A stretch of DNA of 32,000 bases, from assembly GCA_964640155.1 (NCBI GenBank), contig CAZXEQ010000002.1, forward strand, positions 450,001 to 482,000, written 5' to 3'. Every line of letters starts with the position of its first letter. Position 1 is the stretch's first letter. The notes under the pieces were generated by a model. That model did not search any database, was not told where the DNA came from, and saw nothing but the letters and a program-made list of their open reading frames with translations. Below, in pieces: positions 525 through 29,761 of this stretch. A program made the position numbers and the translations under genes. This DNA is from an uncultured bacterium (GTDB taxonomy: Bacteria > Auribacterota > JACPWU01).

Positions 525-610
525 GTAAGATTCTCCTGAGCGACCTCTCTATTTTAAGGCAATAGGGGGTGAATTTGCAACATAAGATCATTCTTAATAA
601 ATTGGAGAGT

Positions 611-745
611 CTCGTATATAAAAGTGTATTCTTTTGAAAAGTGGCGGGTCCTGCCACTCGTCAGCCCCATCGTGCTCACAAAAAGTTGCGCTCGACGGGG
701 CGCCCCGCCGAGTGTCACCCGCATCTATAAAGGACACACTTTTTT
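611..745 (-). repeat. Family-1 GC-rich inverted-repeat element, copy A (MITE/REP-like, unclassified)
   Basis: The reverse complement aligns along its full length with 5127-5266. It has 14-nt terminal inverted repeats (AAAAGTGTGTCCTT/AAGGACACACTTTT type) and a central G/C hairpin CTCGGCGGGGCGCCCCGTCGAG. Confidence 0.8.
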
Positions 746-753
746 GAACACGA

Positions 754-4745: not shown

Positions 4746-4892
4746 ATGCGCTTGGACATGAGCTTACTGTTTGGAATGCTACTAGGACTCGTGCTAGGGA
4801 CTTTTTATGCGACGCAACTAACAGGTTTTCTTCCTCTCTTAATCATCGCATCTTTGGCGCTTGTTTTTGGGCATTTCCTTCATATCAAATAA
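4746..4892 (+). CDS. Small hydrophobic (two-helix?) membrane peptide, 48 aa
   Basis: ATG preceded by GGAGG (4733-4737, 8-nt spacing). Product: MRLDMSLLFGMLLGLVLGTFYATQLTGFLPLLIIASLALVFGHFLHIK. It has its own promoter-like sequence upstream and a strong terminator downstream. It falls below the length cutoff of the ORF track. Confidence 0.45.
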   Translation: MRLDMSLLFGMLLGLVLGTFYATQLTGFLPLLIIASLALVFGHFLHIK

Positions 4893-4931: not shown

Positions 4932-4969
4932 CTTAAAGCCCCAAGGTTCATTTTGGGGCTTTAAGTTTT
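4932..4969 (+). terminator. Intrinsic terminator
   Basis: 12-bp perfect stem CTTAAAGCCCCA/TGGGGCTTTAAG (4932-4943 and 4954-4965), a 10-nt loop, then TTTT. Confidence 0.6.
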
Positions 4970-5126
4970 CATGATAGAGTTCAACTTTAAATTTTTTGTA
5001 GGGACTGCAATTGGAGTTGCGCTAGGAATTCTTTATTCCAAATTCATTCATCATTTCTTCCTTTATTCCTTCTAAATTGTAGAGGACTCCTAAGTATTTT
5101 CTTCCCGCATCGTGTAATCCATGTGC

Positions 5127-5266
5127 AAAAAAGTGTAGCCTTTACAGATACGGGTGACACTCGACGGGGGAGAGGCCCCGCCGCGCGCAATTTTTCATGA
5201 GCACGGTGGGGCCTGACGGGTGGCAGGACCCGTTTCTTACTTGAAGGACACACTTTTATATACGAG
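5127..5266 (+). repeat. Family-1 GC-rich inverted-repeat element, copy B
   Basis: Aligns with the reverse complement of 611-745 at about 80% identity by eye, with long identical blocks. Terminal repeats are AAAAGTGTAGCCTT...AAGGACACACTTTT. Confidence 0.8.
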
Positions 5267-5294
5267 ATCAGTGTGTACAACGATTTTTCTAAGA

Positions 5295-6243: not shown

Positions 6244-7851
6244 TTACGAACTTTGATCTGCATATTCCCCAAATACTTCTTTAAGAGTTGAAACCATTTC
6301 TCCTAAAGTAGCTTCAGATTGAATCGCTTCCATAAAAGTGGGGATGAGGTTTTCAGTTGATTTAGCTTGCCGACGGATTTTATCTAAAGATTTTTGAACC
6401 TCTTTATTATTTCTATTTTTCTTTAGTTTTCTCAATCGATCTTTTTGAAGTTTTTCTGCCTTAGGATTAATTTTAAAAATTTCGGGGTTGAGTTTCTTTT
6501 TTTCTTGATAATGGTTAACTCCAACAATAATACGTTCCTCAGTTTCCACTTGTTTCTGATATCGGAAAGCACTATCTGCAATTTCTTTTTGAAACCAACT
6601 CTGTTCGATGCCAGCCTCAACTCCTCCCAAATTTTTGATGGTTTGAAAAATGGTATTTACCTCTTTCTCAATGGTGTTGGTTAGATTCTCCACTAAAAAA
6701 GATCCTCCCAAGGGATCATTTACCATGGCGACATTACTCTCATGAGCAATGATTTGCTGTGTTCTTAGGGCTATCTGAACTGCTTTTGGTGTGGGCAGAC
6801 TCAAAGCTTCATCCATGGAGTTTGTATGAAGAGATTGCGTGCCTCCCAAAACTCCTGCAAGGGCTTGCAAGGTTGTTCGTACAATATTGTTTTCAGGTTG
6901 AGTAGCAGTGAGACTACAACCGGCAGTTTGAACATGAAGTCTTAAAAAAAGAGATTTCAAATCCTGAGCTCCATATTCTTCTTTCAAGATTTTGGCCCAA
7001 AGGCGACGCGCTGCACGGTATTTAGCAATTTCTTCAAAGAAATCATTATGAGCATTGAGGAAAAAACTGAGTCGGTGGGCAAACTCATCGATTTTTAATC
7101 CTCGTTCTAAACCTAAGTCGATATAGCGTTTGGCATTGGCCAGAGTAAATGCCAATTCTTGTACAGCGGTAGCCCCTGCTTCACGAATATGATAACCACT
7201 GATAGAGATGGGATACCAACGGGGGACATGATGATGAGAAAATTCGATCATGTCTCCAATCAGGCGCAAAGCCGGTTTGACGGGGAAAATATAAGTATTT
7301 TGCGCCATATACTCTTTCAAAATATCATTTTGCATCGTTCCTCTTAGGCGTTTCCAACTTCCTCCATTTTTTTGAACAATCACTAAAAACATAGCCCAAA
7401 TAATGGCTGCAGGTGCGTTAATGGTCATAGATGTGGAAATATGGTCCAGAGTGATTCCTTTAAAAAGTTCATCCATGTCCCAAATAGAATCAATGGCGAC
7501 GCCGTCTTTTCCAACCTCTCCATGAGATTGAGGATTATCTGAGTCAAACCCCAAAAGGGTGGGGAGATCAAAAGCGATGGATAAACCTGTTTCTCCATGT
7601 TTCAATAAATATTTCAAACGTTGATTAGATTCTTTAGCTGTTCCAAAGCCGGAGAATTGGCGCATAGTCCATAATTGCCCGCGATAGCCTGTAGATGAAA
7701 GCCCTCGAGTAAAAGGATATTCTCCTGGAATCTCAGGTAGAACAGATGCATCTTTGCTAGAGTAATAGGGTTTCAGAGGAATTTCTGAATATGTTTTGAA
7801 TTTATCCTCTGGCATAGGGCATCTCTTTAAGAAGTTTTTTTGCTTCTTCAT
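6244..7851 (-). CDS. Coenzyme-B12-dependent acyl-CoA mutase, large substrate-binding subunit (MCM/ICM family; Phe/Gln ICM-type signature)
   Basis: 535-aa ORF with PFTRG, WTMRQFSGFGTAKESN, GLSIAFDLPT, MQNDILKEYMAQNTYIFP, ISISGYHIREAGA and HTNSMDEALSLPT. It has no C-terminal B12 domain. An alternative start at 7815 (MPEDKF) still overlaps the upstream gene. Confidence 0.9.
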   Translation of the reverse strand: MKKQKNFLKRCPMPEDKFKTYSEIPLKPYYSSKDASVLPEIPGEYPFTRGLSSTGYRGQLWTMRQFSGFGTAKESNQRLKYLLKHGETGLSIAFDLPTLLGFDSDNPQSHGEVGKDGVAIDSIWDMDELFKGITLDHISTSMTINAPAAIIWAMFLVIVQKNGGSWKRLRGTMQNDILKEYMAQNTYIFPVKPALRLIGDMIEFSHHHVPRWYPISISGYHIREAGATAVQELAFTLANAKRYIDLGLERGLKIDEFAHRLSFFLNAHNDFFEEIAKYRAARRLWAKILKEEYGAQDLKSLFLRLHVQTAGCSLTATQPENNIVRTTLQALAGVLGGTQSLHTNSMDEALSLPTPKAVQIALRTQQIIAHESNVAMVNDPLGGSFLVENLTNTIEKEVNTIFQTIKNLGGVEAGIEQSWFQKEIADSAFRYQKQVETEERIIVGVNHYQEKKKLNPEIFKINPKAEKLQKDRLRKLKKNRNNKEVQKSLDKIRRQAKSTENLIPTFMEAIQSEATLGEMVSTLKEVFGEYADQSS

Positions 7852-9144: not shown

Positions 9145-10388
9145 TGGTTGACCTTATAAAAGGTGGGATCACGTGTTTCTTGAAAGGCTCGAATAAACCA
9201 TATTTTGGCTTCTTTGGTTTTCCCTTTTTTTAAAAGCTCATCTCCTATCTTCGCATAAACCCAAACTAAATTCTGTTGAAATCCTTTCTCATGAGGGAAA
9301 ATTTTTTGAGCCTGTCGATAAACTTTTAGTGCTTCATGCCATATTTTTCGATCAATAAGACTTTTCCCCCATTCGTAAAAAAGAACTTTTTGATTATGAA
9401 AAACCAAAGATTTTAGTGTGCCTAGCTTTTCGGCTTTTTGAAGGAGAGATTGAGCCATAAGCCAATCTTTTCTTTGCATATGAGTATTGGATTGATTAAT
9501 CCATGCGGCGGCGAGGTTCTGAGTAAACGCATTCTGACTTAAGCGCTCTCCTTGTTTAAGAAAAGGAAGTCCTTGCTGGTAAATAGAGGCAGCTTTAGAG
9601 TATTCATGATTTTCAAAAAATTGATTTCCTCGGCAAATATACAAGTCCAGAATCAGAGAAGCTAAATCAGGAAATTCAGGATCCAATCGGTACGCTTTCT
9701 GATAAAAGGGAAGGGCCTTTTCATAATTTTTTTCTCGAATCCACCTGAGTCCGCGATTGTAATAAATGACTGCCATTAGCGAAACTGGGTTGACGAAACG
9801 TTTCCCTTTCCATTTTTGAATGGAAGGATTGTAAATAAATTCATTGAGCTGGGAAAGATTTGCCAAGAATCCATTGGGGGTTGTTGTCTGAACTTCAAAA
9901 TTTCGAGAAGGTGTTTTAAGAATGGAATAAAGATGAGTCGGTACTTCTACACTCATCGTTGAAAGCCCTAATCGTGTGCAAAGAATATTGAAGAGGAGGG
10001 TGGATGAAACACAATTATATCTGCCCGTATTTAAAGTAATTTGAATCTCTGTGGCAGAAGTATCATAAATTTTAAAAACATTTTTATGGAGAAAACTTAA
10101 AATCAGAAATCCTTTTCGCAAGTCCGATAGATTTTTAATTCGATATTGTAAAACCATTCTATTATAAAGAGCATCAATCTTGGAAAGATAAAGAGGTAAT
10201 TCTTTTTGAGAAACTCCGGAAGCAATCAAAACAGAGTGTTCAAGGCTAAGACGATGGAATTTCCCATCTGCAGCATCTTCAAATAAAGCCTGTTCCAAAG
10301 AGTCAGAAGGAACACAGAGCCCAGAATGGGCCGCGTGTGATAAAACAAAACAAAAGAGGAGAGTAGATAGTCCCACCCGTATTTTCAT
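9126..10388 (-). CDS. Secreted TPR-repeat protein with a putative N-terminal transglutaminase-like Cys/His core
   Basis: 420-aa ORF. Signal peptide [43 protein letters not shown]...VPTHLY resembles a transglutaminase-like core. The C-terminal half has TPR-like A/Y/L periodicity. Its 3' end overlaps the B12-subunit start by 19 nt. Confidence 0.7.
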
Positions 10389-13140: not shown

Positions 13141-13174
13141 AAACACAGAGCGGGTTTTAATCCGCCCTGTGTTT
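13141..13174. terminator. Hairpin between convergent genes (candidate bidirectional terminator)
   Basis: AAACACAGAGCGG-loop-CCGCCCTGTGTTT, a 13-bp stem with one mismatch and A/T runs on both sides. Confidence 0.5.
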
Positions 13175-15714: not shown

Positions 15715-16368
15715 CTATTTTAAATTTCCTGAAAACTTTTTTAAATCTTCCAGTTTCACAGCCTTCGCAAATTTTTCTACTTCTTGAAAATCTTCAACTC
15801 CAGAACTTTTGACTTGAAGCATCAAGTCTCCATAAAAAAGCATAATCTGGGTTTCTTTTTGAGTGGTATTCATCACTTGTGCTCCTTCAAAATCTCCAAG
15901 TTTATAGGCTTCCATTTTTTCTTGAGGTTGTCCTTCCTGTTGCATTTTGGAAAAGAAAGGATTTGAAAGGAGTTGCATTCCTGCTTTTGCAATTTGAACC
16001 ATGTGAGGGATATTCAAGATAGAAACCGTAACTTTTTGAGAGGGTTCCTTCTTATAATTTACTTCTACAGAATAGGCGTTGGATGAAATAAGACCAAAAG
16101 TTGCTTCACTGCCAAGATTTGAAGCGGGTTCAGTTCTTTGCCATCCATCCATGGTGCCAGGTAAACACTCAATCACCTGTTGACTGACAAGTTTTTGAAT
16201 TTGTGTGAGGCCTTGATTTAGAAATTCGATGGCCTTGAGATAATTTTTATCATTATAAGCCTGCTTGGCTTGATCCAGGGTATCTGTGACTTCATCGGAA
16301 AAACAAAGATTAGATTGAAGTGTGACCGAGAGAATTCCTGTTAGCAAAAGTACGCTTATTTTTTTCAT
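15715..16368 (-). CDS. Hypothetical secreted protein
   Basis: The track ORF runs to 16389. ATG at 16368 (MKKISVLLLTGILSV...) has GGAG about 10 nt upstream, whereas the longer form would contain that SD. It has a signal-peptide-like N-terminus and no recognised domain. Confidence 0.65.
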   Translation of the reverse strand: MKKISVLLLTGILSVTLQSNLCFSDEVTDTLDQAKQAYNDKNYLKAIEFLNQGLTQIQKLVSQQVIECLPGTMDGWQRTEPASNLGSEATFGLISSNAYSVEVNYKKEPSQKVTVSILNIPHMVQIAKAGMQLLSNPFFSKMQQEGQPQEKMEAYKLGDFEGAQVMNTTQKETQIMLFYGDLMLQVKSSGVEDFQEVEKFAKAVKLEDLKKFSGNLK

Positions 16369-17145: not shown

Positions 17146-17210
17146 AGATAGCGTTTAGTAAAAACCGCTGGGAAAGTGCCCCCTCATTTTTCCAAAACTA
17201 AACGCTATCT
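17146..17210. terminator. Long hairpin between convergent genes; the 3' arm overlaps the stop codon of the minus-strand gene
   Basis: 14-bp perfect stem AGATAGCGTTTAGT (17146-17159) / ACTAAACGCTATCT (17197-17210) with a 37-nt loop. Confidence 0.45.
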
Positions 17211-18379: not shown

Positions 18380-18423
18380 AAACCGCATGGATCTATATCG
18401 ATGGGATCTAGTGCGGTTTTTTT
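18380..18423 (+). terminator. Intrinsic-terminator-like hairpin plus U7 inside the csp 5' leader (candidate attenuator)
   Basis: AAACCGCATGGATC-loop-GATCTAGTGCGGTTTTTTT, about 12 bp with one bulge and one G-U. It lies 36 nt upstream of the GTG start. Confidence 0.5.
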
Positions 18424-18458
18424 ATGATTAATCATCGAGATAATCAAGGAGGTTTCAA

Positions 18459-18665
18459 GTGGCTCGTGGTAAAGTAAAATGGTTTAGCGACAAGAAGGGT
18501 TTTGGTTTTATTGCGAAAGATGATGGAGGAGATGTTTTCGTTCATCATTCTGCAATTCAAGGTGCAGGCTTTAAGACATTAGCTGAAGGCCAAGAAGTCG
18601 AATTTGAAGTTGTCGACGGAGAAAAAGGTCTTCAAGCTCGTAACGTCGTTAAAGTCGGAAAATAG
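18459..18665 (+). CDS. csp: Cold-shock domain protein (CspA family)
   Basis: 68 aa with a GTG start and AAGGAGG 6 nt upstream. RNP1/RNP2 motifs are KGFGFI and VFVHHS. Confidence 0.9.
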
Positions 18666-18685
18666 TAGTATCTATTTTCTTTAAG

Positions 18686-18746
18686 AAAAGGCCTGTTGTG
18701 CCAGCCCGATTTTCAAAATTTGGGTTTGTGCCAATAGGCCTTTTTT
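18686..18746 (+). terminator. Intrinsic terminator after csp
   Basis: Long composite hairpin AAAAGGCCTGTTG...CAATAGGCCTTTT with an inner CCCGATTTT/AAATTTGGG helix, followed by T6. Confidence 0.6.
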
Positions 18747-24018: not shown

Positions 24019-24444
24019 GAATTGTCCAATAGAGTGTTTATCAAGAAAGGGTCCTGCCCAACGAATCATGATTTACGATCTTCTCTCGTACGCATTCCAG
24101 CGACCGTAAAGAGATAATATTTAGTTTTCGTTTGTTAAAGCAGGAGATGAGTTTCGAAGAGGGGTGTCTTTTCCTTCGTTGCTTACACTCGCGTGCGATC
24201 GCTCATCATTAGGATTCGTTGGTCACCCTCATTTATTTTTATGAATTGTTCAACGGAGTGTGAAGACCATTGGAAATCGAGTGAGCGCGGACCCCGATTG
24301 ATCGGGGGAACGAGATTTCCGTTGAGTTAGTTTCCCTCGCAGGGGGAAACTAACGTGTCTGAACGCTCTGTTGGACGATTCATCCATACGAGACAGTCTA
24401 AGACGCTAGAGTGAGTGATGAAAGTTGTGCAGGACCCTTTTTCT
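24019..24444 (+). repeat. Composite GC-rich structured region built from family-1-like and family-2 repeat modules (possible large structured RNA or nested MITEs)
   Basis: Outer 12-bp inverted repeat AAAGGGTCCTGC (24046-24057) / GCAGGACCCTTT (24429-24440). It encloses a 165-nt hairpin domain (closing stem 24058-24072 / 24205-24222) and the family-2 element 24243-24381. No credible ORF is present. Confidence 0.6.
24243..24381 (+). repeat. Family-2 structured element, copy C
   Basis: 25-bp closing helix (24243-24267 / 24357-24381) around a core homologous to 28884-28982. Shared hairpins are CCCCGAT..ATCGGGG and GTTTCCC..GGGAAAC. Confidence 0.7.
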
Positions 24445-24458
24445 ATGAACAATGGTCA

Positions 24459-25459: not shown

Positions 25460-28400
25460 ATGAAACGATTGAGCGCTATTTCTGTCTTCAAATCTTTTTT
25501 AATAGGAATATTTGTCTTCACTCAAGTTTATGCGGACAATTCTCCAAATACCTCCAGCGCGGCTCGAGTTAGAAATCCAAGAATTTCTTCTTCTCAAATT
25601 TCTCCTGTTTTTGCAAAGCTAGATTCAGAAGCATTGATTCTTAGAAAAATAGGAACTGAAAATATATTGGCCAAAGGAAGTTTGGCTCAAATGGGAAACA
25701 AAATGGTGGTGGTAGGTAAAAATAAAACCATGAGTTTGTCGAGTGTGGTTCAAAAAACTTTTATAGAACAAGATACCCTTCAAAATGAACTCCGAAGTGT
25801 GGGCGTTTCAAGTCAGGCTTTAATACAACCTCCTGAAATGACAAGTGAAGTTTTTGAATTTCAAAATTCTTTTGTGGTTGTAAAAAGTACGAGCTTTGTT
25901 GTTTCTAAGCCTCAACAATTGGCTCAGAATTCAAATATTTTTAAAAAATATAAGGGAAAACGTAAAGGAAGTCAGCCGGTCAATGTTGCTTCTTTAGATC
26001 GTGAGAAATTAAAAGGGTTTCGATCCTTTATGCAAAATGAGCTGAGGCAACTTCCTGATAATGATCCTTTGAAAGTGGCAGCAGCTCAAGGCGAAGATGC
26101 TGTTCTCCAAGCAGTAGCAGAAGGTAAGGGTAAATATGAAGTCATTGATACGTTATTTGTTCCAAAGGCGGTTTTACCAGAAGTCAATGGACGGGTTCAA
26201 TTGCCTTTTCCAACCAAACATTTGCAATCCATGGATTCTGAAAATTTGGATCAAGGGGTAGAAGAACGTGTAGTGGTTGAAAAGCCTAGCATGCATGAAA
26301 GTGGTAAAGCTACTTTTCATACTGAATTTATGTCGGGGTTTACCAAGGGGAATTCATGGGAATGGGAACGTCGTTGGAATTTTCCTTCTGGTTTTTTTCG
26401 CATTACTTTAGGAGCAAGCTATGGTTTGGGTTTGAGAATTCCCATTGATTTAAAAGGAGAGGTTTCTCCCACTGAAATTTTGACAAAAGATGTAGAAGAT
26501 AAACCTCGAAATGTGAATACAAAAATGGAAGTTGATACTTTAGATGCAGGTGCAGATTTTTATCGACGTGTGGGACTTCCTCAAAGTAAGATTTTTGAAG
26601 GGAAAGAAGCTGTATTTGAAGCCAAGTTTGGCTATGGCTATAAACTTCGTGCGCTTTGGGATGATTTGCTTCATCATCCTTTTTCTTATATAGGCATTGA
26701 TGAAAGCCAACATTTTAAACCTCCCATGGGACGGGGCCATGATGGGCCTATTATTCCGATTCCTGCGGAAGCAACACAAACAAAATTTGAGGGTGGAATT
26801 TTAAATGGATTTGCACAAATTGGAATTAGAATTACAGGAAAAGGGACTGTGTTATTAGATTTTCAACCTTTTCTGGGGGCTAAAGAGTTAAAGAAAGAGG
26901 AGATTAAATTTCCTAATACAAGTTCTCAGACTCAAGAAAATGAGCGCCCTAATGCAAATTCCCAGACTAAAAAAAGTGAACTTCCTGCCATTTCTGGAAA
27001 TGGAGACAAATTGGAAAAACCTTTTGGTTTCACGCTCGGTAATCCACGATATAAAATTGATTTGACGCTTGTTCCTGTTGTGCGCTTGGAGGCTACGGTT
27101 GGCGTGGATTGGTTAAGCAGACATTTTAGTACTGGATGGATTGATTTGAATGCTTTAAGCGTAGATATTGGGAGTGTTTCCTTCAGTCGTCATAGTGGGA
27201 CGCGCAAAAATTATAAATTTTCGCAAGGGAAAAAGAAGTTTGAGAAAATTGGTAGTAACTATGCTGAAAATATTAAAGATGGAGATATTGTTGGAATCCA
27301 GTCTGTTCCCAGTGGGAAATTTGTACGTGGAGGGCTTCCAAATGCAGTTGAATGTGGTCTTGGCGCAACCAGTCCACATTGTCATCTTTGGGAGGCCTTT
27401 AAATTTCATGATTTAGGTGGGGGAAAAGTGGCACTTCAATTGATTAAAAATGCGCAATATATTCGTGCAGGTTTGGGTGAAAAAAAGTTTCTTGCTGCGA
27501 TTAGCCCTCATAAACAAAGTTGGGAAACTTTTAAAATGGTGAAGTTGGGAGATGGAAAGGTCACATTTCAAGCTATTAACAGTGGAAAATATGTTCGTGT
27601 CAATTCAGCTGAAGGAGATCGTTTGACTTCAGATAGTGCTAGAGCGGGCGCTTCTGAAACTTTTAGATTTTGGCCAGCTTGGGAAGTGGTGAATGAACTT
27701 CCTGTGACTGCTAAGAAAGATATAGTAGGAATTGAATGTGTTAAAAACGGTAAATATATTCGAGCTGGTATGGATGAAAAATCTCGACTTGCTGCAGTGA
27801 GTCCACACCTTCAAGTCTGGGAAGCATTTAGAGTCAAAGATCTAGGAGATCGAAAAATCGCTTTGCAATCTGTGAAGAGTAACAAGTATGTGAGTATCTC
27901 TTATAATATTCCTCGTATGGATGTGATGGCTCTTAGTTCCGATATTGGACCTGAAGAGACGTTTAAGAAAGTAGATTTGCGTGATCATGGGAAAGTGGCT
28001 CTTCATTCTGGGGTTTTGGGAAAATATATTCGTGCAGGAATGGGGCAGAATTGTTTTTTAGGAGCAGGTAGTACTTCTCCCGGAGAATGGGAGGAATTTC
28101 GTTTTCATAGAGTGCCTCAGACAGAAACAACAGCTCGTTCTCAGTGGCAGAGTCAGCCCCGTCGTGAGAATGCTCAAGAAGAAACTGATGAAGAATCTAG
28201 GATACAAGATCAACCAGAAGAATCAGCCTCTGAAGAAAATGCAAGTCAGGATGCTTCCGAGAATAAGGAACAAGCTCCTTCTCGTGCCCAAAGTGCAAAT
28301 GACAATGCTTCTTCAGAAAATTCTGCAGGAAATAATCCCATCGATTGGAATTCAATCTCACAAGGGATATCAGGATTAACCCCAAATAGAGGAAATACAC

Positions 28401-28855
28401 AAGCTTCTGATGAGGATTCTGATTCTACTTCGGGGCAGACTTCAAATCCTTCTTTGAAACCACCCAAAAAGCCAGGTATATCTTCAGGGAATAAGCCGAG
28501 CACAGGAAATAATTTCCCTGATATCAATCCTAATTGGAAACCATCTCCTTCAACGGGGAGGAAACCGGGGTCGAGTAAACCTCCTATTGTTTTAAAACCA
28601 GGGAAGGTGAATACAAAACCAAATGTTTCTTATCCTGTTACCAAAAAACCTGCTACAACAAAACCCCCCATAACATTAAAACCTTCAAAAACGCTTAATA
28701 ATAAAAACATGAATTGGGGAAATTTTAAATCGAATAAGGCAACGGGATCTTCTTCTCAAATGAATCAGACCAGATTATCTTCTAAAAAAAGTGCAGCAAC
28801 TCAAGGATCAAATTTTACATTGTTAAATGCAAGGTCATCAAATTCGCAGTCATAA
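25460..28855 (+). CDS. Large secreted multidomain protein: beta-rich N-terminal region, two fascin-like beta-trefoil domains, and an S/N/P/K/T-rich disordered tail
   Basis: 1131-aa ORF with GGGAGG upstream and signal peptide MKRLSAISVFKSFLIGIFVFTQVYA. Six ~45-aa subrepeats of the type GKYIRAG...L.A.SP....WE.F.....GD.K.ALQS fall roughly at nt 27278-28115. The C-terminal ~250 aa are low complexity, with KPPIVLKPGK/KPPITLKPSK repeats. Confidence 0.85.
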   Translation: MKRLSAISVFKSFLIGIFVFTQVYADNSPNTSSAARVRNPRISSSQISPVFAKLDSEALILRKIGTENILAKGSLAQMGNKMVVVGKNKTMSLSSVVQKTFIEQDTLQNELRSVGVSSQALIQPPEMTSEVFEFQNSFVVVKSTSFVVSKPQQLAQNSNIFKKYKGKRKGSQPVNVASLDREKLKGFRSFMQNELRQLPDNDPLKVAAAQGEDAVLQAVAEGKGKYEVIDTLFVPKAVLPEVNGRVQLPFPTKHLQSMDSENLDQGVEERVVVEKPSMHESGKATFHTEFMSGFTKGNSWEWERRWNFPSGFFRITLGASYGLGLRIPIDLKGEVSPTEILTKDVEDKPRNVNTKMEVDTLDAGADFYRRVGLPQSKIFEGKEAVFEAKFGYGYKLRALWDDLLHHPFSYIGIDESQHFKPPMGRGHDGPIIPIPAEATQTKFEGGILNGFAQIGIRITGKGTVLLDFQPFLGAKELKKEEIKFPNTSSQTQENERPNANSQTKKSELPAISGNGDKLEKPFGFTLGNPRYKIDLTLVPVVRLEATVGVDWLSRHFSTGWIDLNALSVDIGSVSFSRHSGTRKNYKFSQGKKKFEKIGSNYAENIKDGDIVGIQSVPSGKFVRGGLPNAVECGLGATSPHCHLWEAFKFHDLGGGKVALQLIKNAQYIRAGLGEKKFLAAISPHKQSWETFKMVKLGDGKVTFQAINSGKYVRVNSAEGDRLTSDSARAGASETFRFWPAWEVVNELPVTAKKDIVGIECVKNGKYIRAGMDEKSRLAAVSPHLQVWEAFRVKDLGDRKIALQSVKSNKYVSISYNIPRMDVMALSSDIGPEETFKKVDLRDHGKVALHSGVLGKYIRAGMGQNCFLGAGSTSPGEWEEFRFHRVPQTETTARSQWQSQPRRENAQEETDEESRIQDQPEESASEENASQDASENKEQAPSRAQSANDNASSENSAGNNPIDWNSISQGISGLTPNRGNTQASDEDSDSTSGQTSNPSLKPPKKPGISSGNKPSTGNNFPDINPNWKPSPSTGRKPGSSKPPIVLKPGKVNTKPNVSYPVTKKPATTKPPITLKPSKTLNNKNMNWGNFKSNKATGSSSQMNQTRLSSKKSAATQGSNFTLLNARSSNSQS

Positions 28856-28864
28856 AGCTAAAAG

Positions 28865-29001
28865 AAGAAGGATTTATTTTTAGGACCGTTGATGAGGCTT
28901 GTGCTCATGGTCCCCGATATTCATCGGGGAAACAAGCCGAATCACCGAGCGAAGTTCCATCGGTGGGGGAACTGAGCGTGTCCGAAAAATAAATCCTTCT
29001 T
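28865..29001 (+). repeat. Family-2 structured element, copy D (fills the gap between convergent genes)
   Basis: 22-bp closing helix AAGAAGGATTTATTTTTAGGAC / GTCCGAAAAATAAATCCTTCTT around a GC-rich core homologous to copy C. Confidence 0.7.
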
Positions 29002-29005
29002 GCTA

Positions 29006-29761
29006 TTACTTCTCTTTGACAGAGCTAAATAATTTCTTTCCTACAAAAAAGGGCCCCATCGACTCTATATATTTAGCTGTTTGCTGGGTTTTTCTCATTT
29101 CTTGAATGAGTTTAGAAAGAGGATAGAGTTCTTGTCCCATTAAACCAATGACAAATTCATTGTTGCTTATATCAAGGCCATGGCAGACCAGTCGAACATC
29201 ATGTGCAAAATCAGCCGCTCCAAAATTCATACCGATTTTGGCATGTTCCATTAGAATTCCCCGTTGTTCATCTTTTGAAAGAAGTTCAAATTCTGCTTTT
29301 CTTTTGAGAGGATACCAGATTGCCCAAGATGAGGACAGATTAGAGAGATTACGTCGAGGTTTCCATAAGAGCCAATCTTCTAAATTCTGTTCATGTCCAC
29401 TGGAATAAGTTCGTCCAAACATGGTGAATTCTGGACGAGCCTCAAGATTGATAAAGGGTTCAGATAAGAGTAAAGCTCTAAGCTCTTCGGCAAATAGAGC
29501 CGGGTTTTCACTTACAGTCACAAGCCCTATTCCTCGTGCATCATTGACATCAGAATAAAGCACACATTCAAAAGCAGCTTTTTTTAGGGTTTCGATAACT
29601 TCTTGTGTTTGAAGACATTCTGTAAAAGCTAAAAACTGAATAAAAAGTCTCTGATTTAAAGTCTGAGGAACGCCATCTTTAGCAGCTCCGAATTCACGTA
29701 TTTCTGGCAGCTCCATAGGAGGCCTGGATGTAGGATGAGAATGTGTTTTTGTTTCACTCAT
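29006..29761 (-). CDS. Chlorite dismutase family (Cld/HemQ-like) haem-binding protein
   Basis: 251-aa ORF with WYPLKRK, ILMEHAKIG (candidate proximal His), HGLD...EFVIGL and GPFFVGKKL, the characteristic pattern of this family. Confidence 0.75.
   Translation of the reverse strand: MSETKTHSHPTSRPPMELPEIREFGAAKDGVPQTLNQRLFIQFLAFTECLQTQEVIETLKKAAFECVLYSDVNDARGIGLVTVSENPALFAEELRALLLSEPFINLEARPEFTMFGRTYSSGHEQNLEDWLLWKPRRNLSNLSSSWAIWYPLKRKAEFELLSKDEQRGILMEHAKIGMNFGAADFAHDVRLVCHGLDISNNEFVIGLMGQELYPLSKLIQEMRKTQQTAKYIESMGPFFVGKKLFSSVKEK

Follow-up and report, generated by a model that had tools for sequence, protein, structure and literature searches.

A structure-constrained repeat lodged in locus-specific inverted repeats, and inverted at an orthologous site, in an uncultured bacterial lineage

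Two intergenic copies of a GC-rich repeat, here called Family 2, share a core of about 100 nt and are found in the window (the whole 32,000-nucleotide stretch analysed) as copy C (24241-24383) and copy D (28865-29001). A third copy occupies the site orthologous to D in a sister species, where arms and flanks stay colinear but the core runs in the opposite direction relative to the genes. These are all the Family-2 copies known, and two of the three are orthologues. The explanation that we tentatively favour is that Family 2 is a non-autonomous repeat, restricted to its lineage and constrained in structure, which occupies the apex of inverted repeats particular to each locus, flips between them, and caps the 3' ends of the transcripts of its neighbours; with three copies in hand, this reading is a lead and not a result. 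The 3'-end role is predicted from modelled structure, and mobility is suggested by the presence and absence of copies, since no transposase, target-site duplication or empty site was found.

The window has a GC content of 38% and encodes only housekeeping genes (thiGH, PEPCK, methylmalonyl-CoA mutase and a DEAD helicase, among others), with no transposase, recombinase, reverse transcriptase or RAYT gene within it; none of the genes around the copies is related to mobile elements or to RNA. The closest named homologues of its proteins come from metagenome-assembled genomes (MAGs) labelled Chlamydiae bacterium (66-75% identity), and the identical strain is present in three public read sets (SRR8893623, SRR19881398 and SRR31893870); look-ups with the Cld and DEAD proteins for further same-strain assemblies across site D returned nothing. 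Copies C and D had been picked out by a sequence-only reading, whose coordinates and sequences for them were all correct on re-check. Its statement that D fills a 150-nt gap between convergent stop codons also stands, since the two open reading frames end at 28855 and 29006. The features of both loci are as follows.

24035-24451, + strand: Family-1-type repeat enclosing copy C, with a terminal inverted repeat (24035-62 / 24424-51).
24241-24261, + strand: C 5' outer arm ATGAATTGTTCAACGGAGTGT, forming 21 contiguous pairs with 24363-24383.
24263-24362, + strand: C core, with P2 helix 24271-24282 / 24310-24321, hairpin 24292-24307 and P3 24326-24354; 110 bits with covariance model R1.
24363-24383, + strand: C 3' outer arm.
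25460-28855, + strand: upstream convergent gene, 1131 aa, DUF7910, with 9 nt between its stop and the D arm.
28865-28881, + strand: D 5' outer arm AAGAAGGATTTATTTTT, forming 17 Watson-Crick pairs with 28985-29001; identical in the sister species and locus-specific.
28882-28984, + strand (sense): D core, a GC-rich three-way junction; 128 bits with R1.
28883-28886, + strand: 5' half (GGAC) of the D closing stem, pairing with 28980-28983 (GUCC); conserved in C, D and the sister-species copy.
28887-28947, + strand: D arm P2, with a 13-bp helix (28890-28902 / 28932-28944), an internal loop and the conserved hairpin (28911-28930).
28894-95 / 28939-40, + strand: tandem G.A in the D P2 helix.
28949-28977, + strand: D arm P3, hairpin GC GA AGUUCC...GGAACU GA GC, inside a 50-nt block that is 100% identical in the sister species.
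28985-29001, + strand: D 3' outer arm AAAAATAAATCCTTCTT.
29006-29761, - strand: downstream convergent gene, chlorite-dismutase family (Cld), 251 aa, with 4 nt between the D arm and its stop.

The CCCCGAT..ATCGGGG hairpin occurs at two places in the window, 24292-24307 and 28912-28929, and not once in 100 shuffles, and a pattern search of the window places GGGGGAA-N5-CGTGTC at 24342-24359 (C) and 28965-28982 (D). Both copies fold into the same three-way junction, made of an outer helix, a 4-bp GGAC/GUCC closing stem and the arms P2 and P3, with P2 laid out in each as a long helix, an asymmetric internal loop and a CCCCGAU hairpin cap. At equivalent positions the inner helix of P2 reads GGAAAUC/GAUUUCC in C and GGCUUG(U)/(A)CAAGCC in D, and the ungapped P2 helix is 12-13 bp long in both copies, its sequences unrelated and its pairing kept, as the sequence-only reading had proposed; each P2 helix holds one tandem G.A/A.G, at differing positions. 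P3 shows a paired one-base indel (AGUUUCC/GGAAACU in C, AGUUCC/GGAACU in D), and two more pairs are compensated between the copies, one at the base of P2 (A-U/G-C) and one at that of P3 (U-A/C-G). The companion proposal, that the outer helices are unrelated in sequence and still paired, is borne out as well: with the closing stem included, the D arms (28865-28886 / 28980-29001) are 22 nt long and 95% complementary, C has its 21 contiguous pairs plus AGAC/GUCU, and GGAC/GUCC are the sole termini shared. As pairing is kept despite changed sequence, a single-strand structure is under constraint, and the alternation of conserved blocks with variable complementary ones goes beyond what one simple insertion would give and thus likewise argues for a constrained single-strand fold.

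Folding statistics agree for the two copies, with z-scores on the + strand of -7.0 for D and -9.4 for C (0 of 200 shuffles equally stable), and the fold is unchanged under DNA folding parameters. In a three-copy alignment (C, D and the sister-species copy), 89% of the pair cells are paired, against 33-50% with slid partners. Pairs changed on both sides number 15, against 0-2 with slid partners, and 0 of 500 shuffles match this, although part of the 15 are register shifts in the sister-species P2b hairpin and the structure was derived from the same three sequences. The two strands also differ. All non-Watson-Crick helix pairs of the sense strand are G.U, six in C and one in D, the other strand having one and zero; in the outer arm of C all four such pairs are G.U on the + (sense) strand, with zero other mismatches. 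By our estimate this last count would arise by chance about 1% of the time, assuming that about one third of unselected substitutions give G.U per strand. The bias suggests a function of one particular strand, in single-stranded form, with arms and core working as a unit. The folding energy of C is -76 kcal/mol on the + strand versus -52 on the - strand.

The sister-species contig, JAYRIK010000199.1 (GCA_041906865.1; hereafter L018), was reached through a 78%-identical homologue of the 1131-aa protein and is fully syntenic with the window from 21.6 to 32 kb, at 82-85% nucleotide and 78-97% protein identity. Searched with R1, which was built from copies C and D, it gives a single match (6933-7047, minus strand, 94.6 bits), located in the gap, orthologous to that of D, where the DUF7910 and Cld genes converge. 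The arms at this site are the same as in the window, AAGAAGGATTTATTTTT(T) / (A)AAAAATAAATCCTTCTT, identical at 34 of 34 positions, and the D arms belong to the locus, not to the family. The core between them lies on the plus strand in the window and on the minus strand in L018, with a single orientation per assembly, so that at a single locus the segment enclosed by one pair of inverted repeats is found facing either way, as in a flip-flop.

Aligned in sense orientation, the D elements of the two species are 88.9% identical. The 3' half of the core, a 50-nt block running from AAGCC to GTGTCC, is identical at 50 of 50 positions; identity in the P2 region is about 80%, with a compensatory change of G-C to A-U at one pair. 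For comparison, the two species share 73-91% identity across other intergenic spacers and 57.7% at the 4-fold degenerate sites of seven flanking genes (n=1142). Judged from these alignments, the complete identity of core half and arms against 58% at neutral positions resembles the effect of purifying selection on a host function; it would also follow from a recent spread.

At site C the comparison differs in kind. No Family-2 copy was found between thiG and the acyltransferase gene in L018, where the 496-nt segment of the window has as its counterpart 245 nt containing a GC-rich, Family-1-like element with 18-bp arms of its own; since the whole segment differs, site C gives no clean empty site. 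Two Family-1 motifs lie at the C locus, GGGTCCTGCC (24049-58; p ~0.003) and GTCACCCTCATTTAT (24222-36; p ~0.013), colinear and in the same orientation as in Family-1 copy A, and copy C begins 5 nt past the second of them and is thus nested in another repeat. The recurrence of GGGTCCTGCC had been considered as a link between the families and was rejected, because the C locus is itself a Family-1-type element; the region 24035-24451 folds as layered hairpins. In three relatives at greater distance, the sequence upstream of thiG holds other structured elements rich in GC, or none, and this spacer is a dumping ground for such elements. The 10-mer ATTTATTTTT abuts the C arm on its 5' side (24231-24240, +) and makes up the inner portion of each D arm as well. 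It occurs four times in the window, against a chance expectation of 1.09, and three of these occurrences are at Family-2 copies (24231-24240; 28872-28881; 28985-28994 on the - strand); at C its first six bases lie within the Family-1 motif, so that it may mark a preferred target and not a part of the element.

Two observations on the surrounding repeat are added here. The Family-1-type element of the thiG spacer appears in opposite orientations in the two species (24035-24451 in the window, 2335-2590 in L018), a possible second flip. Between its 5' end and copy C lies a separate hairpin-forming segment of 168 nt (24058-24225, with 18-nt arms at 24055-72 / 24208-25), with nine G.U pairs on the + strand and three on the - strand.

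At D, the GC-rich core is set apart from the U-rich tails by 9-10 A.U pairs, and the structure is flanked on both strands by A-rich 5' and U-rich 3' sequence, so that it would cap both convergent mRNAs. The arrangement of an intrinsic terminator, with a GC stem followed directly by a U tract, is absent at D, and the outer arms are pure A/U, unlike the canonical terminators of the host genome, which are GC-rich stems with A/U tracts; a genuine terminator in the window is the GC-rich 16-bp stem with U tail at 13141-13174. A simple terminator scan of 28600-29200 gave none, though its loop limit of 3-8 nt would miss the D structure anyway. Scans of loci C and D for promoters and terminators gave nothing on the sense strand, and the sense strand of C points away from both neighbouring genes, being antisense to each.

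In the explanation that we favour, the core sits in every copy at the exact centre of an inverted repeat of 17-21 bp owned by the locus and not by the family, and folds as a single strand, either RNA or single-stranded DNA, with a GGAC/GUCC stem, a P2 free in sequence but paired, an invariant hairpin and a second hairpin. As the flanking arms are inverted repeats, the core can flip in place; alternatively, it may enter a symmetric site in either orientation. The arms may have arisen either from a pre-existing hairpin or by fold-back or template-switch copying of one flank. When either neighbour is transcribed, arms and core would form one very stable hairpin ending U-rich, on both strands. At D this would most likely act as a bidirectional 3'-end cap, barrier or processing structure for two convergent mRNAs, serving the host or tolerated by it.

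A cargo-like, mobile-type repeat fits better than a conserved small-RNA gene, given the locus-specific arms conserved across species, the turnover and nesting of copy C, the flipped core at D and the existence of a second family with the same layout. The sequence-only reading had offered either a structure-selected hairpin or an insertion into the loops of palindromes. The structural constraint is supported, while the two options are not cleanly separated, with the turnover and nesting of C, the D flip and the second family favouring a mobile core in stable arms. The inversion had not been anticipated by that reading. As for its view of the arms as pre-existing palindromes or terminators, ownership by the locus holds, given their identity in L018, but those of D do not form a canonical terminator stem. 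Relatives were also searched for empty sites retaining the AT-rich palindrome, as that reading had suggested, and no such long palindrome was found; distant relatives have other neighbours of Cld, and the C locus is fully rearranged in L018.

Searches for relatives of Family 2 gave little. Rfam 15, hammerhead, twister, HDV-like, Y RNA, 6S and SRP families included, has zero matches at gathering threshold over the window, and permissive searches (E<=10 on the D region, E<=5 on the window) returned nothing relevant. R1 run over about 140 kb of related loci (L004-L007, L014-L017, L020, L022, L024 and L025) found no copy beyond that of L018, and neither two viral-contig scans nor blastn against plasmids and phages gave a match. 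A metagenome scan with the 3'-domain pattern gave six matches on GC-rich contigs, due to chance. A scan of genome contigs for CCCCGAT..ATCGGGGRAAC..GGGGGAA found solely tandem REP-like hairpins in a Bryobacteraceae MAG, judged to be unrelated. The hairpin pattern would miss the sister-species copy (CCCGAUG), so that absence elsewhere is valid for near-exact cores only. As far as could be searched, Family 2 is confined to one genus-level lineage. The Bryobacteraceae MAG itself (L001 4400-5200, L002 1-140 and L003 1260-1450) contains a 27-nt hairpin unit, GCGGCCCCGAYGCAAGCRTCGGGGGAA, repeated in dense tandem arrays with spacers of 10-15 nt; the arrays are REP-like and too tightly spaced for CRISPR. 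These arrays resemble the P2b hairpin, but the Family-2 unit is a 100-nt three-way junction and no RAYT gene lies in the window; from sequence comparison, the stem they have in common with P2b is probably a chance likeness.

Several other identities were considered and rejected. The UGAUGAG-stem-CGAAU bases of a hammerhead are paired in the fold of D, and their equivalent is absent in C. Strings like GTTCAAC/GTTGGAC of an integron attC occur in the arms of C only, D being without GTTRRRY, the layout reversed and the context housekeeping. A 27-codon open reading frame in the D core has no counterpart in C and loses its frame in L018. A loop-loop pseudoknot in D (AUGG/CCAU) is uncompensated in C, and an alternative helix in D (CACCGA/UCGGUG) is not retained there.

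Four other accounts of the same data can be set against the favoured one. A serious rival, though in our judgement less likely than the favoured account, is a host-functional structured RNA, either a small RNA or a 3'-UTR module, whose junction, loops and hairpins bind a partner, whose variable helices need only pair, and whose long, near-perfect outer helix serves as a double-stranded processing site (for RNase III, for example) that releases or stabilises the core, with paralogues gained and lost like small-RNA genes. Completely identical blocks alternating with unrelated complementary ones are a classic signature of functional RNA, and the sense-strand G.U bias, the greater stability of C on its + strand and the invariance of 3' domain and arms beside 58% at 4-fold sites all agree with it; convergent transcription at D, moreover, would yield the sense RNA whichever way the core faces. 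The orientation to the neighbouring genes is not conserved at D, however, and copy C is missing in the sister species, is nested inside another repeat, and has a sense strand antisense to both neighbours with no promoter or terminator detected. Against an RNA gene also count the lack of any Rfam match even at E<=10, the failure to find it in more distant relatives of the clade, and an unrelated second family whose arms behave in the same way, a sign of some generic process at the DNA level. Such a process is the substance of another account, which we consider improbable: a functionless quasi-palindrome, in which the GC-rich hairpin provokes intra-strand template switching during replication, one flank is copied to the other until the arms extend to coding sequence, and the same process makes paired changes and indels and inverts the spacer. 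The near-perfect arms do have a host-like composition, and those of D end 4-9 nt short of the stop codons; the free intergenic space at C is entirely taken up by inverted repeats in successive layers. The paired indel of P3, the inverted core at D (to which the Family-1 element of locus C can probably be added) and the same behaviour in another family would also follow. It gives no account, though, of identical blocks in old paralogues whose P2 helix has been fully replaced, of 84 invariant positions (the 50-nt block and both arms) against 58% at neutral sites, or of the one-sided G.U pairs in the C arms, and template switching itself was not observed at Family-2 sites. It could explain the origin of the arms, not the conserved blocks.

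The opposite orientations between identical inverted repeats of 17-22 bp in two close species, together with a size within the range of known invertons, would suit a site-specific inverton, in which a recombinase flips the core between its arms and so changes which of the convergent transcripts carries the sense structure or terminator. No recombinase gene lies in the window, the core has no promoter-like site, and each assembly shows a single orientation; because the arms differ wholly between loci C and D, one invertase could not recognise both, and we regard this account as very improbable. Least credible is an ordinary MITE or REP-type element with diverged terminal repeats, to which the small size, repetition, intergenic position, long-hairpin fold and polymorphism of site C between species would be suited. 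Conserved terminal inverted repeats are missing, with just GGAC/GUCC common to C and D, and direct target-site duplication is missing too, the flanks being inverted repeats with no duplication beyond the arms. The arms are conserved between species at one locus and unrelated between loci, and an internal helix varies as well, yet stays paired. The earlier judgement that this is no ordinary MITE bounded by terminal inverted repeats is thereby upheld, the arms being unrelated between copies and GGAC/GUCC alone shared at the ends.

Family 2 has partial counterparts among known systems. The integron attC site conserves its structure while its sequence varies, and is recognised as one folded strand, with conserved outer R''/R' boxes and a variable centre. 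The layout of Family 2 is opposite, RYYYAAC/GTTRRRY-like strings being found only in the C arms, and no integrase or cassette context is present. Rickettsia palindromic elements (RPE) and the Correia/NEMIS elements of Neisseria are selfish palindromic repeats of 100-150 nt in intracellular or host-restricted bacteria, and form long hairpins when transcribed, those of Correia being RNase III substrates. They have conserved terminal inverted repeats, in Correia with a TA duplication; Family 2 has neither. RPE and NEMIS are both listed in PMC3184786. The same source summarises bcr1 of the Bacillus cereus group as a dispersed intergenic repeat of about 150 nt whose structure is kept by compensatory changes and whose genomic distribution is not conserved between close strains (PMC3184786). 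Family 2 is likewise a repeated intergenic element with helices kept paired through compensatory changes. It has no sequence in common with bcr1, which possesses conserved ends and 5-bp direct repeats; Family 2, unlike bcr1, shows no target duplication, has a locus-specific closing helix and is inverted at an orthologous site.

SPRITE elements are structured repeats at convergent 3' ends (PMC3184786). They have a terminator-like motif of their own, whereas the simple scan found none at D, and copy C is not at a convergent junction. In the hairpin-loop flip-flop of plastids, a segment between inverted repeats of 18-19 bp occurs in both orientations in close relatives (PMC6342102), which matches the D core between its arms of 17-22 bp, but the plastid loops are 5-50 nt of ordinary sequence and Family 2 is a conserved structured repeat. 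Insertion sequences such as ISPa11 and ISPpu9/10 target REP palindromes and end up flanked by palindrome halves (PMC1525189). These are autonomous and use one conserved REP target, in contrast to Family 2, where every flanking palindrome is different and the cargo carries no gene. Family 2 is best filed among the small structured intergenic repeats, set apart by its locus-specific closing helices and the flip in the sister species.

A third family, the second family referred to above, with three copies in two Chlamydiae MAGs (contigs L016 and L004), has the same architecture: a conserved core, ...AGCTTGAGCCAGA...GAAGAAAACGTAGGC[variable hairpin]GTCGAGGCTTTCTGAAGG.CAAGATGGCCAAGATC..., enclosed in each copy by a long closing arm of unrelated sequence, with lengths from 19 bp to over 30 bp. 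Covariation is seen in one internal helix (GACGCAA/UUGCGUC versus GACGAAA/UUUCGUC). The family has no Rfam match, and the G.U strand bias was not seen in it. Its copies are rod-like repeats of about 150-200 nt with a variable apical hairpin (L016 8895-9125 and 15365-15550; L004 4455-4695).

A broader proposal, which we think rather unlikely, is that these families represent an undescribed class of mobile cargo defined by structure, namely small GC-rich folded modules of several unrelated families, located at the apices of locus-specific palindromes. Such modules would recognise structure and enter the tips of hairpins or cruciforms in either orientation, or duplicate one target flank as an inverted copy, and would then flip as invertible 3'-end modules of convergent genes. 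Should the favoured reading hold, small bacterial repeats need not bring their own terminal repeats, and a conserved folded core would use or generate a different long palindrome at each site and be invertible within it. This would be a new mode of persistence for selfish or regulatory DNA at gene ends, without disruption of genes, and a source of strand-switching RNA structures between convergent genes. Environmental Chlamydiae-like genomes have barely been studied for non-coding elements, and several unrelated families with the same architecture occur in them.

Three genomes of the clade contain Family 1, a GC-rich repeat of about 145 nt whose ends (AAAAGTGT.../...CACCCGCATCTATAAAGGACACACTTTT) are conserved as in a classical MITE, unlike those of Family 2. 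It is found in the window at 610-750 (+) and 5122-5267 (inverted), in L016 at 9320-9348 and 15765-15795, and in L018 at 2355-2565. Short-read (Logan) contigs of the same strain break exactly at Family-1 copies A and B (L025). A further element in L016 (15555-15755; 61% GC) has a 135-nt core in near-perfect arms of 26 bp, with a z-score of -9.3, and adjoins copies of the third family and Family 1 upstream of thiG.

Some minor features of the window may also be recorded. Between the convergent HSP20 and metalloenzyme genes, 17146-17210 forms a hairpin whose 14-bp stem encloses a conserved loop of 37 nt and is followed by a U tail, and the stem shows two compensatory pairs relative to L020 (~1165-1235), from GCGTTTAGT to GCGCCTAGT; this is probably a terminator with an unusually large loop, overlooked by the simple scan. 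In L020, from the sister species, about 160 extra nt with hairpins (CTCGACTCTCCCGACGTTACGTCGGGA...) follow on the 3' side of the HSP20 terminator (1240-1380) and are absent in the window. A small open reading frame for a hydrophobic peptide of about 48 aa (4746-4892, +) lies in the 715-nt spacer upstream of Family-1 copy B and is followed by a canonical terminator (4932-4965). A weak match to the cspA thermoregulator (18401-18715, +; 26 bits against a gathering score of 78) spans the 5' leader and coding region of the gene for a 68-aa cold-shock protein (18459-18665), which is identical in five public contigs.
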